The position numbers were made by a program, and so were the translations under genes. 64,000 bases of DNA, taken from a virus. Shown in pieces: positions 5,497-60,262 of this stretch; position 1 is the first letter of the stretch, and each line of letters starts with the position of its first letter. Location: positions 64,001-128,000 of the IMG/VR virus record IMGVR_UViG_3300035698_017111; one strand, written 5' to 3'. Below the pieces are notes generated by a model. That model was not told the DNA's origin. It ran no database searches and saw nothing but the letters and a program-made list of their open reading frames with translations.

Positions 5497-7346
5497 AAGA
5501 AATGGGGAAACAATATGTTTTGGGTGAACCAGAACCATATGATCCATTTAATAAAGAACACAATGATCCAAATAAGTATTTAATACAATACGGAACTGTG
5601 GAGATTCATACAGCCCACACATTGGATGCTGCTGCTCAAATTGCAGACAGAGAGGGACTACAAGGAGACGATAGAGCTGTTTTAATCGCCTCTGCACTAG
5701 CACACGATCTTGGTAAAGCAGATGTTACTCAGGATGAGATGAAAGATGGTAAGATGAGAGTAACGTCCAAGGGACATGAGGGATTAAGTGTAGATCTTGC
5801 TAATAGTCTTTTGAAAAGAATGGGTATTAAGAAAGACATAGTGGACAGAGTATTACCTATTGTTGGCCATCATTTGTTACATTTACATTTTGACCCAGAT
5901 TCTAAAAACGGCAATGCTAGACAGATTGCAGAAAAACTATATCCAGCAAGTATTAAAGAATTAATATATCTTATTGAATCGGATCATTCTGGGAGACCGC
6001 CCATTGAGGGTGGATTGCCTGAATTGGCAGAACAGTTACAAGCTTCAGCTCAAGAACAAGGGGCATATGATGGTAGGGTTCCACCACTGATTCAAGGAAG
6101 AGATATTTTGCATCTTTTCCCAGAGGCTGGTCCTGCTATTGGACAAGTTCTGCAAGAAGTACGTAAAAAACAACTTCGAGGACAGGTTAGTACTCCAGAA
6201 GAAGCTATGTATGCGGCAGAAATGTCAGCACAAAAACTAATTCTTTTGGTTAATGGAAGGGATGTTTTAGATGTTCTTGGTGGGGTTGGTGGACCACATG
6301 TTGGTGAGATCTTGAATAATGCATGGGAAGCTCAGAAAAATGGTGTTTTTACCGATAGAGAAGGGGCTTTGACGTGGTTGCAAGAACAATATACTAGTGA
6401 ACCAGTGCCTCAAAATGAGGTTATAGACAATGTTCCAAACGACAATATGGAGAGATTCGAAGCAATGGAAAGTAATTTAAGATTCTCAGAACTCAATATG
6501 AATTACGTGACGAAAATATCCGACAACATGTCGGATAAAGCAATTGTTGCTGCGTCTCTTGTTGTTAGTGAATTCAAGAGTGGACAACCAGATTGGAGTC
6601 TTATTCAAAAATACATTAGTAGCAATTCAGATTTTAAATTAGAAGAAATGCAGTTGTTTTATGAATCTGATCCAAAATATGCAACTGAGACATATGAACA
6701 AATATTAGAAGAGTTTCTAAATGCTGATATAGAGGCATTTTTAGATAGTTATATGAAAACAGGACAGTCAACAACAACAGAATATGGAGACGTTCCATTC
6801 GGAGTACAAGAAGGTTCGTTACATGCAGAGGAACTGGCAGATGCCTTTGGTTCTGAAGCTGTAGCACAAGCAATGGAATTGATACAAATACACAGTCCAG
6901 AATCTCTCGATGGAATTACGTACATTGGTCTTGTTGATAAGGGAGATATGTTCGGGGTTACGGAAGATGAGTTAACGCAAAAACTCAGAGAACAAAGAGG
7001 AGAACCCATAGGGGATGCTGGTAGTAAGGAAGCATTTAGACTCAATGCAGAAATAATTAAGGGAAAGAAACAAGAGTTCGAAGCAGAGTCTAATGCACAA
7101 AAAGACAATCTATTACGATCATATCCTCCAGATGTTGTTGCACTATGGGAAGAAAGAAATGCAAGTGAAGTTCTTCCACTGATTATTGCGGAGGTTATAG
7201 TACACGAAGCAGAACACGCTCATGGTGCGGAAGGTGAAGGGCAACCCATTGCAGAAGAAAGACAATTTCTTCAAGAAGCTATAGTTCGATTAAATAAAAA
7301 AAGACAAGATGATGGTATTCCAGAATTACCAGTTGTTTTAAAGTGA
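5469..7346 (+). CDS. cca: CCA-adding enzyme, C-terminal half (HD phosphohydrolase, two tail repeats, HExxH extension)
   Basis: IHTAHT, ALAHDLGK, GHE, HHLLH, SDHSGR; PLIQGRDIL..GPAIG and LVNGRDVL..GPHVG tails; HEAEH near the C-terminus. Confidence 0.8.
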   Translation: MPAFSPEQIKEMGKQYVLGEPEPYDPFNKEHNDPNKYLIQYGTVEIHTAHTLDAAAQIADREGLQGDDRAVLIASALAHDLGKADVTQDEMKDGKMRVTSKGHEGLSVDLANSLLKRMGIKKDIVDRVLPIVGHHLLHLHFDPDSKNGNARQIAEKLYPASIKELIYLIESDHSGRPPIEGGLPELAEQLQASAQEQGAYDGRVPPLIQGRDILHLFPEAGPAIGQVLQEVRKKQLRGQVSTPEEAMYAAEMSAQKLILLVNGRDVLDVLGGVGGPHVGEILNNAWEAQKNGVFTDREGALTWLQEQYTSEPVPQNEVIDNVPNDNMERFEAMESNLRFSELNMNYVTKISDNMSDKAIVAASLVVSEFKSGQPDWSLIQKYISSNSDFKLEEMQLFYESDPKYATETYEQILEEFLNADIEAFLDSYMKTGQSTTTEYGDVPFGVQEGSLHAEELADAFGSEAVAQAMELIQIHSPESLDGITYIGLVDKGDMFGVTEDELTQKLREQRGEPIGDAGSKEAFRLNAEIIKGKKQEFEAESNAQKDNLLRSYPPDVVALWEERNASEVLPLIIAEVIVHEAEHAHGAEGEGQPIAEERQFLQEAIVRLNKKRQDDGIPELPVVLK

Positions 7347-18282: not shown

Positions 18283-18618
18283 ATGGCTTATGAAGACTAC
18301 AACCCACTAGAACAAGTTCTTGCTCAACAAAGAGACCAATATGCTGAAGAACTAAAAGCATTGAAAGGTCAACTACAGAACATAGGACTTTCAGAGATAC
18401 ATTACAAAATGGTAATAGAAGAATGTCAAAATGCTTTGAGCAAAATATTCAAAACAGCTTCTTCTGATTGTGATGAATACGATTTAAAAGATATTCGTGA
18501 AGAAATACAAAGAACTCTATCTGTTGTGAAAAGACAAGTGGAATTAGTGCAAGAAACAAAAGAAAAGGGATTTGATGCTGCATATGCATTTAATTTAAGA
18601 AGAACAAAAAAGGGTTAA
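18283..18618 (+). CDS. hypothetical coiled-coil protein
   Basis: GAGG RBS; AGG-N19-GAATT upstream at 18234-18260. Confidence 0.65.
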   Translation: MAYEDYNPLEQVLAQQRDQYAEELKALKGQLQNIGLSEIHYKMVIEECQNALSKIFKTASSDCDEYDLKDIREEIQRTLSVVKRQVELVQETKEKGFDAAYAFNLRRTKKG

Positions 18619-18893
18619 AGGTCCCATTCTTTTTTACCCATAAAATCAATTGCCTCATCCTCTGAGTCAAACATAAAATCCTGACGTATCATTCCCTCAT
18701 CATCATATTCTGTTGTATAGAACGCAAACGATGTCTTAATCTTCCCATCTGTTTCATCTTCACGCATTTCGTATATAACCGAGACAATGGTTGTTCTAAC
18801 AAAAGAAATAATATCTAGATTCTCATTGTCATAATCTGGAATCCAAACTTCATCACCTATATCGTAAATGGGTTTTTCTCCAGATATCCGCAT
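18615..18893 (-). CDS. hypothetical protein
   Basis: AGGGA RBS before MRISGEK; YDIGDEVW motif. Confidence 0.6.
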   Translation of the reverse strand: MRISGEKPIYDIGDEVWIPDYDNENLDIISFVRTTIVSVIYEMREDETDGKIKTSFAFYTTEYDDEGMIRQDFMFDSEDEAIDFMGKKEWDL

Positions 18894-18921
18894 AATGCAT
18901 TCCCTATTGATAAAAATTATA

Positions 18922-19092
18922 GGAGTGGTTGACTTCGGGTTTGTAACCTGACACCTAACGCTCATGGCGTGAGGACGTTCTGGCCTTGGGTATGATCCTC
19001 ACCAGATTTTTCAGCCCGTACTTCAGTTGTTACAATTTGAGGCTACCCTTTTCTCATACTCAGTACGATTAATTACGTACAGCAACCACTCC
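18922..19092. ncRNA. putative structured, possibly pseudoknotted ncRNA
   Basis: Perfect 10-bp terminal helix GGAGTGGTTG/CAACCACTCC plus several internal helices. Confidence 0.5.
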
Positions 19093-19099
19093 CATTTTC

Positions 19100-19808
19100 T
19101 TATACGACATTGTATATCTTGTCGAGATCTCCCCTAAGGAATTTCGCTAAAGAAAACTTACCTTCAGGACACTCAACACGATCTCTTCTATAGTTATAGT
19201 TTCTATTATAACCACCACGTTTTCCTTTATTTTGATTCTGAGAGTCATATTGTCCCTTGATGTCTGTGTGTTTTTTCTTCTCACTAATCACAGACATTTT
19301 CTTGGATAGTCGTTCAAAAGCTATCTCTTTGTTTTTTCTCTGATCACGAGTATCACAACATTCAACGGTTATTCCGTCGTATTGCAAACGAACACCAGAG
19401 AGAGTTTTATTTCTTTTCTGTCCACCACAACCAGAATCCTTATAGTACGTAACCCTAACCTTTGATTTATCAATAGTGTTCTCTTCGACTCTATTCTTTT
19501 CGACAAGAACGACATTGATCAAAGAAGTTTGGACCCGGCCACGAGTCTCCGTTGGAGGGACTCTCTGGACACGGTGAACTCCAGGCTCTCTTCAGAACCA
19601 GTCTCTACATCCAGGTCCAGTTAATTCTAATTCTGTTTGTTTTGCGGTTTGAGACACAACACGGGCTTTAATGTTATGTTTTGCAGCATGCTTCAGGTAA
19701 GCCTTGAGTAGGTCCTGAGCAAATAGGCGGGAATCCTGACCTCCCTCACCAGGCAAGATTCGAAGATAGAGGGGGCTAAAGACAACTCCTTTTCGTTTGT
19801 GTTTTCAT
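19100..19808 (-). CDS. RF1-like peptide chain release factor lacking domain 1; needs a +1 frameshift and UGA readthrough (about 235 aa)
   Basis: RBS and ATG at 19808; AGGAGT-TGT-CTT-TAG-C; the +1 frame reads PGEGGQDSRLFAQDL...WF*REPGVHRVQRVPPTETRGRVQTS and continues into SGCGGQ. Confidence 0.8.
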
Positions 19809-19894
19809 AATTACTCTCCTTTTTAGTATTTCTCATATCAATACGATTTTCTTTATGCAAATACCTCGTTACATGATTTATCGTATACTACAGG

Positions 19895-21895: not shown

Positions 21896-22015
21896 GACTG
21901 GAACGGATAGTCATTACAGTGATAGCTCATTTTGGTAGAGCATCGGCCTTCAACGCCGGTTGTTATAGGTTCAATTCCTATTCACCCAAACAAACTGACT
22001 CTCAATAATCCAGTC
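21896..22015 (+). ncRNA. Y-RNA-like element 2 with a nested tRNA-like core (UCA anticodon)
   Basis: GACTGG/CCAGTC and AGTCA/TGACT stems, GAAC, TACA; core 21919-21985 with D arm, CTTCAAC loop and TTCAATT T loop. Confidence 0.7.
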
Positions 22016-22265: not shown

Positions 22266-22393
22266 TTGCTAGGAACGGCACGTTGATACAGACAAAATAG
22301 CTCAGCTGGTAGAGCTGTTGGTATTCTAACCAATAGGCGTAGGTTCAATTCCTACTCTTGTCACCTTTACTCAACTGGTAATCACCCTAGCAA
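22266..22393 (+). ncRNA. Y-RNA-like element 3 with a nested tRNA-like core (8-nt anticodon loop)
   Basis: TTGCTAGG/CCTAGCAA and GTTGA/TCAAC stems, GAAC, TACA; cloverleaf 22291-22362. Confidence 0.7.
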
Positions 22394-59863: not shown

Positions 59864-60262
59864 GGGCTCGTACTGGTTTCGACGGGAAGCAGAACGGGAA
59901 AAGCTGCAAGCCGAGCATGTCAGATCCATCTCGATAAACTGGTCTGTCAACAATAGCTGACGAAGCTATGCCAATCGCTGCCTAAGAGAACCTTAAGCAG
60001 TCGCCCTCTCTAAGTTCCGTCTGTAACGAAGAAAAGGGCGTCATCAAACAGACTCGTTCAGAGGTCTACTCCTGGGGTATCTGAACTAAAAAGCACAGGA
60101 CCGCAATAACCGAATGGTAACGACAAAACGTCAGACGGCTGACGGTCGAATGAGTTGTTACAGCCATGGGGAGCGGTTACTGAAAGTGTAGCAGCCTAAG
60201 CTTGTAGACGCTTTTTCTAGACTCTTTTCGGACGGGGGTTTCGATACCCCCCGAGTCCACCA
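59864..60262 (+). ncRNA. ssrA: tmRNA, predicted tag (A)DEAMPIAA
   Basis: 5' GGGCTCGTACTGGTTTCGAC and 3' CGAGTCCACCA with G3:U70; tag ORF ends AA-TAA; TTGACA/TATGAT promoter at 59825-59854. Confidence 0.92.

Follow-up and report, generated by a model that had tools for sequence, protein, structure and literature searches.

The stretch of viral DNA analyzed here, 64,000 nucleotides long (positions 64,001 to 128,000 of IMG/VR record IMGVR_UViG_3300035698_017111; hereafter the window), carries on its minus strand a putative phage release factor gene in which two stop codons stand ahead of the motif predicted to read stop codons. A strong Shine-Dalgarno (SD) sequence and an ATG open a short zero-frame open reading frame (ORF), ORF1, that runs into a cassette resembling the programmed +1 frameshift site of bacterial prfB, the gene for RF2. 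The zero frame meets a further stop 9 codons past the cassette TAG, and the rest of the gene lies in the +1 frame, where one TGA, directly followed by REPGVHRVQRVPPTE, is the sole interruption (Table 1). Read through both sites, the gene would encode 10 + 225 = 235 amino acids (aa). An earlier note, made from the sequence alone, had proposed this architecture, and its start SD, ATG, MKTQTKRSCL peptide, AGGAG/CTT/TAG/C cassette, TGA, and GGQ motif all lie where it placed them; the 235-aa length that it gave for the reconstructed product is likewise borne out. Its statement that ORF callers see only the last 140 aa is accurate for the piece at 19522 to 19100, to which the ORF listing of the gene adds a 54-aa piece and nothing else.

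The cassette shares with prfB a CTT slip codon, an in-frame stop followed by C, and a downstream ORF in the +1 frame. An internal SD-like GGAG stands at −8 to −5 from the CTT in the window gene and in 11 relatives (GGAGG-NNN-CTT). The departure from the prfB pattern lies in the shift stop, which is UAG in the window gene and seven relatives and UGA in four. Such sites are rare in this DNA: GGAG-N4-CTTTAGC occurs once in the 64-kb window versus 0.02 expected occurrences, and the cassette is the sole GGAG-N3-5-CTT-T-stop sequence (TAG or TGA) in the whole 146.8-kb record. Internal initiation without a frameshift was considered and rejected. The body frame has no start codon before the TTG at 19756, which has no SD and would cut the conserved first strand, and all relatives that carry the cassette place the SD and ATG in the zero frame, with no body-frame start upstream of that strand.

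Table 1. Coordinates of the release factor gene, its parts, and candidate UGA decoders (window positions unless a locus is named; RF, release factor)
Feature	Position	Strand	Remarks
SD sequence AGGAG of the ORF1 ATG	19816..19820	-	Spacer to ATG, 7 nt
ORF1, zero frame	19779..19808	-	ATG (19808-19806) plus 9 codons, MKTQTKRSCL; last codon is the shift codon CTT
prfB-type +1 frameshift cassette AGGAG-TTGT-CTT-TAG-C	19775..19790	-	AGGAG 19790-19786; TTGT 19785-19782; CTT 19781-19779; TAG 19778-19776; C 19775
Gene body, +1 frame	19100..19777	-	225 codons plus TAA (19102-19100); RF1 domains 2 to 4
In-frame TGA	19592..19594	-	Residue 62 of body, 72 of full product; context TTC-TGA-AGA
PPT (PxT stop codon "anticodon" of RF1) inside HRVQRVPPTE	19550..19558	-	Aligns to RF1 motif VQRVPVTE
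GGQ catalytic motif	19418..19426	-	Body residues 118-120; invariant in both family alignments
tRNA-like element, anticodon UCA (reads UGA), candidate decoder	21917..21988	+	ARAGORN
tRNA-Trp(CCA) gene	L017 2473-2549
tRNA-Trp(CCA) gene	L025 1484-1558		Gap to RF gene, 12 nt
tRNA-Trp(CCA) gene	L030 1871-1946		Gap to RF gene, 92 nt
Aberrant tRNA, anticodon loop CU-CCA-AA (Trp)	L115 120-190 = G001:C1:83419-83489	-	Rfam, 32 bits

The product resembles RF1 without domain 1

Read across the TGA, the gene body matches the C-terminal half of the Pfam domain PCRF (3e-21) and the RF-1 domain (3.8e-17). NCBIfam models score it at 152.6 bits for RF1, 107.7 for RF2, and 47.7 for PrfH. The match to the RF1 model (TIGR00019/NF001859) begins at position 107 of 347, and its 152.6 bits fall below the equivalog cutoff of 400; the product is therefore of RF1 type and not a full prfA equivalog. 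RF1 domain 1 is absent, and solved RF1 chains align from about residue 110, with the RF1 motif VQRVPVTE in 4v4r. The RF1-type PxT motif claimed in the earlier note is present in HRVQRVPPTE, in the VQRVP context of RF1 rather than as the SPF of RF2, together with GGQ and a domain 2 to 4 fold.

An AlphaFold2 (AF2) model of the read-through body, built with 28 family sequences, had a mean pLDDT of 87.9, and Foldseek aligned it to ribosome-bound RF1 with TM scores of 0.89 to 0.90 and root mean square deviations of 2.3 to 2.7 Å. PrfH (RF-H), a release factor without domain 1 that is paired with RtcB2, is similar in domain content, since it too retains the GGQ domain without the N-terminal domain 1. 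The phage protein differs from it in keeping the RF1 PxT decoding motif (as PPT), in scoring 47.7 bits versus the PrfH equivalog cutoff of 166.65, and in its fold (TM 0.70 to PrfH versus 0.90 to RF1). We conclude that the product is a predicted phage class I release factor of the RF1 type, comprising domains 2 to 4 and lacking domain 1.

Separately, two relatives (L036 and L037) read HRIQRSGITE instead of HRIQRVPPTE just past the TGA. The PxT tripeptide is lost there in an otherwise conserved gene, and stop codon specificity may differ.

The frameshift cassette recurs in diverged relatives

Relatives were drawn from a short RF1 protein family in a large protein database, where most members are called as C-terminal fragments. 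Metagenome and genome scans provided the DNA of 15 distinct close relatives with 47 to 58% identity, making 16 close genes with the window gene included; family loci (designated by L numbers) accounted for 80 of 165 metagenome matches, and a wider set comprised 31 short RF1-type phage genes. Scanning IMG/VR with the single protein returned no relatives, and an alignment-based scan of it returned distant relatives only. Among deposited phages, searches with the release factor gave matches that were all below 40% identity, and searches with a large structural gene gave no match.

Twelve of the 16 close genes, the window gene among them, retain the cassette despite a divergence that otherwise exceeds synonymous saturation. 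Seven relatives have an ATG, 5 to 11 codons, and then GGAGG-NNN-CTT-TAG-C (L029-L033, L036/37, and L040), and four carry a CTT-TGA-G/C cassette (L035, L039, L041/42, and L108). Three others start directly, without a cassette (L034, L038/43, and L044). In the remaining relative, L028, the sequence at ~1500-1545 reads TGG GAG TGT CTT TTT GAA; the SD-like and CTT-T bases are kept, and extra bases fuse the two frames. L028, with ORF1 and body fused, also has no internal TGA; it represents a natural "repaired" version of the cassette.

The ORF1 peptide of the relatives (5 to 11 codons) is not conserved; what is conserved is the nucleotide cassette, and its SD register, slip codon, and base after the stop agree with the determinants of the prfB cassette. 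In a maximum-likelihood tree, TGA cassettes sit on basal branches, and TAG cassettes fill an inner clade that contains the window gene. More distant clades place a GGAG-TGT-CTT-TGA/TAG cassette in mid-gene (L010, L048, L068, L073, and L075), and in L009 an in-frame TGA is followed 15 codons later by CTT-TAG-C.

Two short RF2-type (SPF) genes without domain 1 were also seen on metagenome contigs (L072, ~2758; L076, ~282), with AGGGG(G/A)-NNN-CTT-TGA-C cassettes. Because these RF2-type genes carry canonical cassettes, short phage release factors of both specificities appear to be frameshift gated.

The internal TGA recurs at many positions ahead of the decoding motif

An internal in-frame stop interrupts 14 of the 16 close genes, the window gene among them, and it is always TGA, never TAG or TAA. 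Across the wider set, 26 of the 31 genes carry one or two TGAs, distributed over nine alignment columns that require at least ten separate events on the tree, a count that rests on the alignment of diverged sequences. Six different columns are used inside the strongly supported close family alone, and therefore many independent TGA gains are needed. Every TGA lies upstream of HRVQRVPPTE; Trp is encoded ~20 times downstream, in every case by TGG. At four of the nine columns, relatives not carrying the stop have Trp/TGG, and one of the four is the conserved Trp of the release factor "GW" motif. The column of the window TGA is also TGA in L030, L032, L033, L036/37, L038/43, and L040 and is TGG or Trp in L029, P0003, P0004, P0007, and P0010; as a TGA column, it persists between sequences whose synonymous sites are saturated.

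The internal TGA is followed by A in seven events and by C in three, with no case of T or G; the phage's 42 ordinary TGA stops are followed by A in 16 cases, T in 12, C in 8, and G in 6 (A or C in 24/42). In E. coli, A and C after UGA are weak termination contexts. The ratio of nonsynonymous to synonymous substitution rates (dN/dS) is 0.07 to 0.12 upstream and 0.06 to 0.24 downstream of the TGA, at dS values of 0.2 to 0.9 (L032, L033, L036, and L040). The gene thus shows what is expected of programmed readthrough, namely, a conserved in-frame stop, same-frame coding under purifying selection, and A or C as the next base. The relatives' flanks gave no sign of general TGA recoding, in a weak test over only ~3 kb.

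The earlier note had named homologs lacking either site, or a relaxed dN/dS betraying a pseudogene, as grounds for abandoning its proposal. Neither ground was borne out: close homologs keep both the shift cassette (12/16) and the TGA (14/16), and dN/dS is low, about 0.1, on both sides of the TGA. Judged by this conservation, both predicted recoding sites are real, selected features of an RF1-type gene without domain 1.

Candidate decoders of the UGA

A CTGGA/TCCAG hairpin after the TGA was also part of the earlier proposal. The inverted repeat is present in the sequence, but the minimum-energy fold does not include it, and the hairpin is neither significant nor conserved. The region after the window TGA folds no better than shuffled sequences (z = −0.97), and no conserved structure emerged among the seven genes that share this TGA column (consensus, −1.7 kcal/mol). 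On these grounds a selenocysteine insertion element (SECIS) or downstream readthrough hairpin was rejected, and the gene shows no sign of a stimulatory downstream RNA structure of the kind associated with readthrough. Bacterial readthrough does not need such a structure.

A tRNA-like element with anticodon UCA lies on the opposite strand of the window (Table 1). It matches the Rfam tRNA model with 51.9 bits over model positions 4-67 only, so that its acceptor stem has 4 bp, and it lacks a long variable arm. Neither the 3-kb surroundings of 17 relatives' genes nor the 120-kb contig of L108 yielded a UCA tRNA. The fetched loci contain 79 tRNAs, and all three tRNA-Trp(CCA) genes among them (L017, L025, and L030) lie no more than ~450 nt from the release factor gene; in this small sample, the proximity may reflect a functional link to UGA readthrough. 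A further, aberrant tRNA-Trp(CCA) at L115, with odd D- and T-loops and not called by ARAGORN, shares the 120-kb L108 contig with an RF1 gene that bears both a UGA cassette and an internal UGA. The preferred decoder is probably a near-cognate tRNA-Trp, perhaps boosted by phage copies, with the UCA element as its rival.

In another locus (L007), a short RF1 gene with two in-frame TGAs is followed, ~2 kb downstream, by a tRNA (5499-5570) with the amber-reading anticodon CTA.

Genetic code of the phage, possible host, and neighboring elements

The source record is a linear IMG/VR virus contig of 146,772 bp, ~77% complete, with one gene of release factor domain type. Greedy ORFs under translation table 11 cover 93.6% of it and end in 90 TAA, 42 TGA, and 40 TAG stops; in-frame TGG codons number 554, and the single in-frame TGA is that of the release factor gene. 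No other gene in the record is split by a single in-frame stop (same-frame neighbors restart within 0 to 11 codons), and backup stops after TGA and TAG stops lie at medians of 16 versus 16.5 codons. General recoding of TGA or TAG was rejected, given equal coverage under tables 11, 4, and 15, the use of all three stops, and the absence of other split genes. The phage otherwise uses the standard code. Nor does it look like a code 4 phage with a code-change module: in-frame TGAs are not spread over the genome, the UCA element is noncanonical, and no tryptophanyl-tRNA synthetase (TrpRS) was found in the ~77% complete record.

A possible pointer to the host comes from L108 (G001:C1), the only labeled contig, which has 120,681 bp, is binned with a Candidatus Saccharibacteria metagenome-assembled genome (MAG), and carries a phage-type short RF1 gene and seven tRNA genes. 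The contig looks like a phage genome, and either it was binned wrongly or its place in the bin points to the host. In this MAG, prfB has the normal two-frame form and a second release factor gene is present; an RF2-less host is therefore disfavored.

Several other RNA features lie in the window. The 185 nt directly 3′ of the release factor stop (18915-19099, minus strand) fold with a minimum free energy of −56 kcal/mol (z = −3.3; 1/200 shuffles equal), enclosed by a long closing stem, with no Rfam match at E ≤ 1. This segment overlaps the start of a 116-aa ORF at 18615-18965, and in relatives the position often holds a tRNA gene. A full-length tRNA at 22291-22365 (plus strand; Rfam, 59.7 bits) has a 7-bp acceptor stem and an 8-nt anticodon loop, UAUUCUAA, in which Infernal reads the anticodon UCU with an extra A before U33. 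Anticodon loops of 8 nt are typical of +1 frameshift suppressor tRNAs. ARAGORN also reports a phage transfer-messenger RNA (tmRNA) at 59864-60262 (plus strand), with a tag peptide read as DEAMPIAA. The tmRNA joins the release factor gene and the tRNA-like elements in a set of putative translation rescue parts of this phage.

Discussion

From the anatomy described above we infer +1 slippage, insertion of Trp, and a response to RF1 and RF2 levels, and the reading that we hold to be likely is that a prfB-type +1 frameshift retuned to UAG and a UGA readthrough gate are both needed for synthesis of the 235-aa RF1-type factor. Ribosomes would start at the ATG at 19808 and nine codons later meet the internal SD-like AAGGAG, the spacer, CUU in the P site, and UAG-C in the A site. 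Slow termination at the UAG would let the peptidyl-tRNA-Leu slip from CUU to UUU (+1), as in bacterial prfB. Because UAG is read only by RF1-type factors, the frameshift should be under negative feedback from host RF1 as well as from the product. Sixty-one codons further, the UGA-A, in a weak termination context, would have to be read through, with a near-cognate tRNA-Trp inserting the Trp that relatives encode by TGG; the yield of this step should rise at low RF2 activity. Both gates precede the codon-reading motif, and an aborted product would therefore be a short fragment without decoding or catalytic parts. A stop placed later in the gene might give a fragment that binds stop codons without releasing the peptide. 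In this light, the conserved obstacles resemble sensors, built into the gene, of how much termination capacity the cell has.

The earlier note had cast the gene as an AND gate that requires weak termination at both UAG (RF1) and UGA (RF2). This fits the anatomy of the window gene, but the relatives do not look tied to a fixed pairing of UAG with UGA and combine the parts freely: some have a UGA cassette plus an internal UGA, some the internal UGA alone, and some the cassette alone. Relatives with UGA in both places would report on RF2 only. Since the parts are mixed so freely, the general principle looks like "one or two stop codon gates ahead of the decoding motif."

Several points weigh against this interpretation. 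Four close relatives (L035, L039, L041/42, and L108) have UGA rather than UAG in the cassette, and with UGA as the cassette stop their frameshift cannot autoregulate an RF1-type product. Two inefficient steps in series would give a very low yield of full-length protein. A factor without domain 1 is only putatively functional in vivo; Mora and colleagues reportedly found in 2003 that domain 1 truncations keep codon-specific release in vitro and lose the interplay with RF3. Decoding of the UGA could fall to the UCA tRNA-like element, 2 kb from the gene, rather than to tRNA-Trp. Finally, the record is only ~77% complete, and a suppressor tRNA or further TGA-containing genes could for that reason lie in the missing part.

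Other explanations differ in what they make of the two stops. Taken by itself, a gene that shows both a broken frame and a nonsense codon in a single record looks defective, and the arrangement might be put down to damage, that is, to a pseudogene or to an assembly or sequencing error. We give this next to no chance. The cassette and the TGA recur across the close genes in independent assemblies, and these relatives share only 47 to 58% identity, so they are not copies of one misassembled sequence; the interrupting codon is invariably TGA, purifying selection acts on both sides of it, and the model of the read-through product is confident and RF1-like. It is also highly improbable that the TGA is a true stop, yielding an N-terminal fragment of ~71 aa and a C-terminal piece restarted at the TTG at 19522, the two acting separately or assembling. 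Gene callers do put starts shortly past the TGA in many relatives, but the called restarts vary between genes and none has a conserved SD, the nine TGA columns would cut the domain 2 sheet at nine places, and a C-terminal piece from 19522 would lack the PPT motif. A variant of this idea, in which the UGA encodes selenocysteine, draws on the ARAGORN label of the UCA element ("tRNA-SeC"); it was rejected, with Trp, Gln, Ser, or Lys and never Cys in the aligned columns, no SECIS-like conserved hairpin after the TGA, and no long variable arm in the element.

The remaining alternatives accept the readthrough and differ on the decoder or on its purpose. One holds that the UGA is read by a phage-supplied decoder (the UCA element, or tRNA-Trp variants in relatives) and not by leaky host tRNA-Trp, in which case the UGA gate would be a temporal switch, with RF1 made only after the phage RNA had been expressed and processed. 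The closeness of the UCA element, the three of three tRNA-Trp(CCA) genes beside release factor genes, and the aberrant tRNA-Trp(CCA) on the L108 contig all speak for such a decoder, as does the coupling of RF1 with a UCA suppressor and TrpRS in TGA-recoded Jade phages (10.1101/2021.08.26.457843). We nevertheless regard it as unlikely. The 4-bp acceptor stem makes charging and EF-Tu delivery of the UCA element doubtful, its isotype is not assignable by similarity to the 79 phage tRNAs, no counterpart was found near the relatives' genes or on the L108 contig, and the record yielded no TrpRS. A general UGA suppressor would, moreover, cause readthrough at the 42 TGA stops of the phage as well, and these have no special backup. 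Another alternative, which we consider quite unlikely, is that the TGA senses the host code, letting extra RF1 be made only in RF2-less hosts in which UGA encodes an amino acid (code 4 or 25) and all termination depends on RF1. Many relatives do come from groundwater and sediment metagenomes, one contig is binned with a Saccharibacteria MAG, code 11-compatible phages of code 25 bacteria have been described (PMC10746230), and a UGA-to-Trp lineage has been reported in Patescibacteriota (PMC13092985). Yet 42 phage genes end in TGA with backup stops no closer than those of TAG; the CTT-TGA cassettes (L035, L039, L041, and L108) need slow UGA decoding, which contradicts efficient sense reading in the same cell; the two-frame prfB of the sole candidate host MAG is normal; and TGA occurs only within the first third of the gene, with every downstream Trp encoded by TGG, unlike neutral sense use.

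Returning to the frameshift and readthrough gates, we tentatively extend them to the family as a whole, a generalization to which we give slightly less than an even chance. Short phage RF1 genes would carry modular sensors of termination capacity, consisting of a UAG or UGA +1 cassette, an in-frame UGA decoded as Trp, or both, in every case ahead of the decoding motif; through the internal UGA, RF1 synthesis would be tied to RF2 activity. If this is correct, it would be the first natural case of readthrough-type release factor control, a form of regulation that had been predicted ahead of the sequencing of prfB but has never been found in cells, and it would here act across two factors. The phage would top up RF1 exactly when termination is limiting, during infection or under ribosome-targeting host defenses. 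Phages with a standard code would then still invest in tuning termination, which bears on limiting release factors and on defenses that attack translation. Gene callers routinely truncate such genes, and phage release factors are consequently underannotated. The natural permutations (UAG or UGA cassettes, N-terminal or in mid-gene, with zero to two readthrough UGAs) form a comparative series for how stop identity, context, and position set recoding efficiency.

Comparison with known systems

No published description of a doubly stop-gated phage RF1 design was found in the literature searched. Work on phage recoding mentions phage RF1 solely as one component, encoded in the standard code, of a code-change module (10.1101/2021.08.26.457843; PMC10746230). 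In Jade phages, the module itself uses the standard code, and the late genes that it supports are rich in in-frame TGA (10.1101/2021.08.26.457843). The present gene resembles the Jade module in linking a phage-encoded RF1 with UGA decoding and Trp tRNA biology, and it differs in that the RF1 gene is itself the sole gene with an in-frame TGA, no TrpRS was found in the record, and the UCA RNA is noncanonical.

A viral parallel is the class I release factor gene of Mimivirus and Megavirus, whose two internal stops are passed by one frameshift and one readthrough, a combination described as unique to these viruses (Jeudy et al. 2012, PMC3521657). Both are viral release factor genes with two internal stops and the same two kinds of recoding. 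The giant-virus factor, however, is eRF1-like and belongs to a virus of eukaryotes, and the phage factor is of bacterial RF1 type; the two are unrelated in sequence, and the designs would therefore be convergent.

Natural UGA readthrough by tRNA-Trp is familiar from the Qbeta A1 protein and, as low-level UGA-to-Trp decoding, from Bacillus subtilis. The phage genes have in common with these an in-frame UGA in a leaky context, an ORF that continues in the same frame, and, in relatives, Trp at the position. They differ from readthrough of the Qbeta A1 type in that the UGA interrupts the core of a factor of an essential type rather than preceding a C-terminal extension. Since the UGA recurs at nine positions in one gene family, it points to a gate and not to a second isoform.

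The prfB frameshift is the textbook example of a translation factor that gauges its own activity at a stop codon, with an SD-like AGGGGG, a 3-nt spacer, and CUU UGA C at the end of an ORF1 of about 25 codons. Like prfB, the phage gene has a short ORF1, an internal SD-like GGAG(G) in the same register, a CUU slip codon followed by U, an in-frame stop followed by C, and the remainder of a class I release factor in the +1 frame; in both, the shift stop is one that the encoded type of factor reads, which permits negative feedback. Unlike prfB, the phage gene is viral, encodes an RF1-type factor, and uses UAG as its shift stop. Its ORF1 has 10 codons, and, with domain 1 missing, the shift comes ahead of domain 2; among its relatives, some cassettes have UGA as the stop or lie in mid-gene. 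In more than 12,000 bacterial genomes surveyed in 2025, TAG was absent from all 8,164 prfB motifs and UGA was used in 98.6% of them, prfA showed no programmed frameshift, and no equivalent for RF1 was seen (PMC12421855). According to a 2016 recoding review, no bacterial release factor gene was known with an early in-frame stop that is read through in frame, a UAG/RF1 counterpart of prfB control was "unknown," and the giant-virus factor was the only case of a frameshift plus readthrough (PMC5009743). Published stop codon sensors of this design are so far confined to bacterial RF2 and giant-virus eRF1. By the regulatory logic that its anatomy suggests, the phage family would supply both the RF1/UAG counterpart of prfB and a readthrough type of release factor control.

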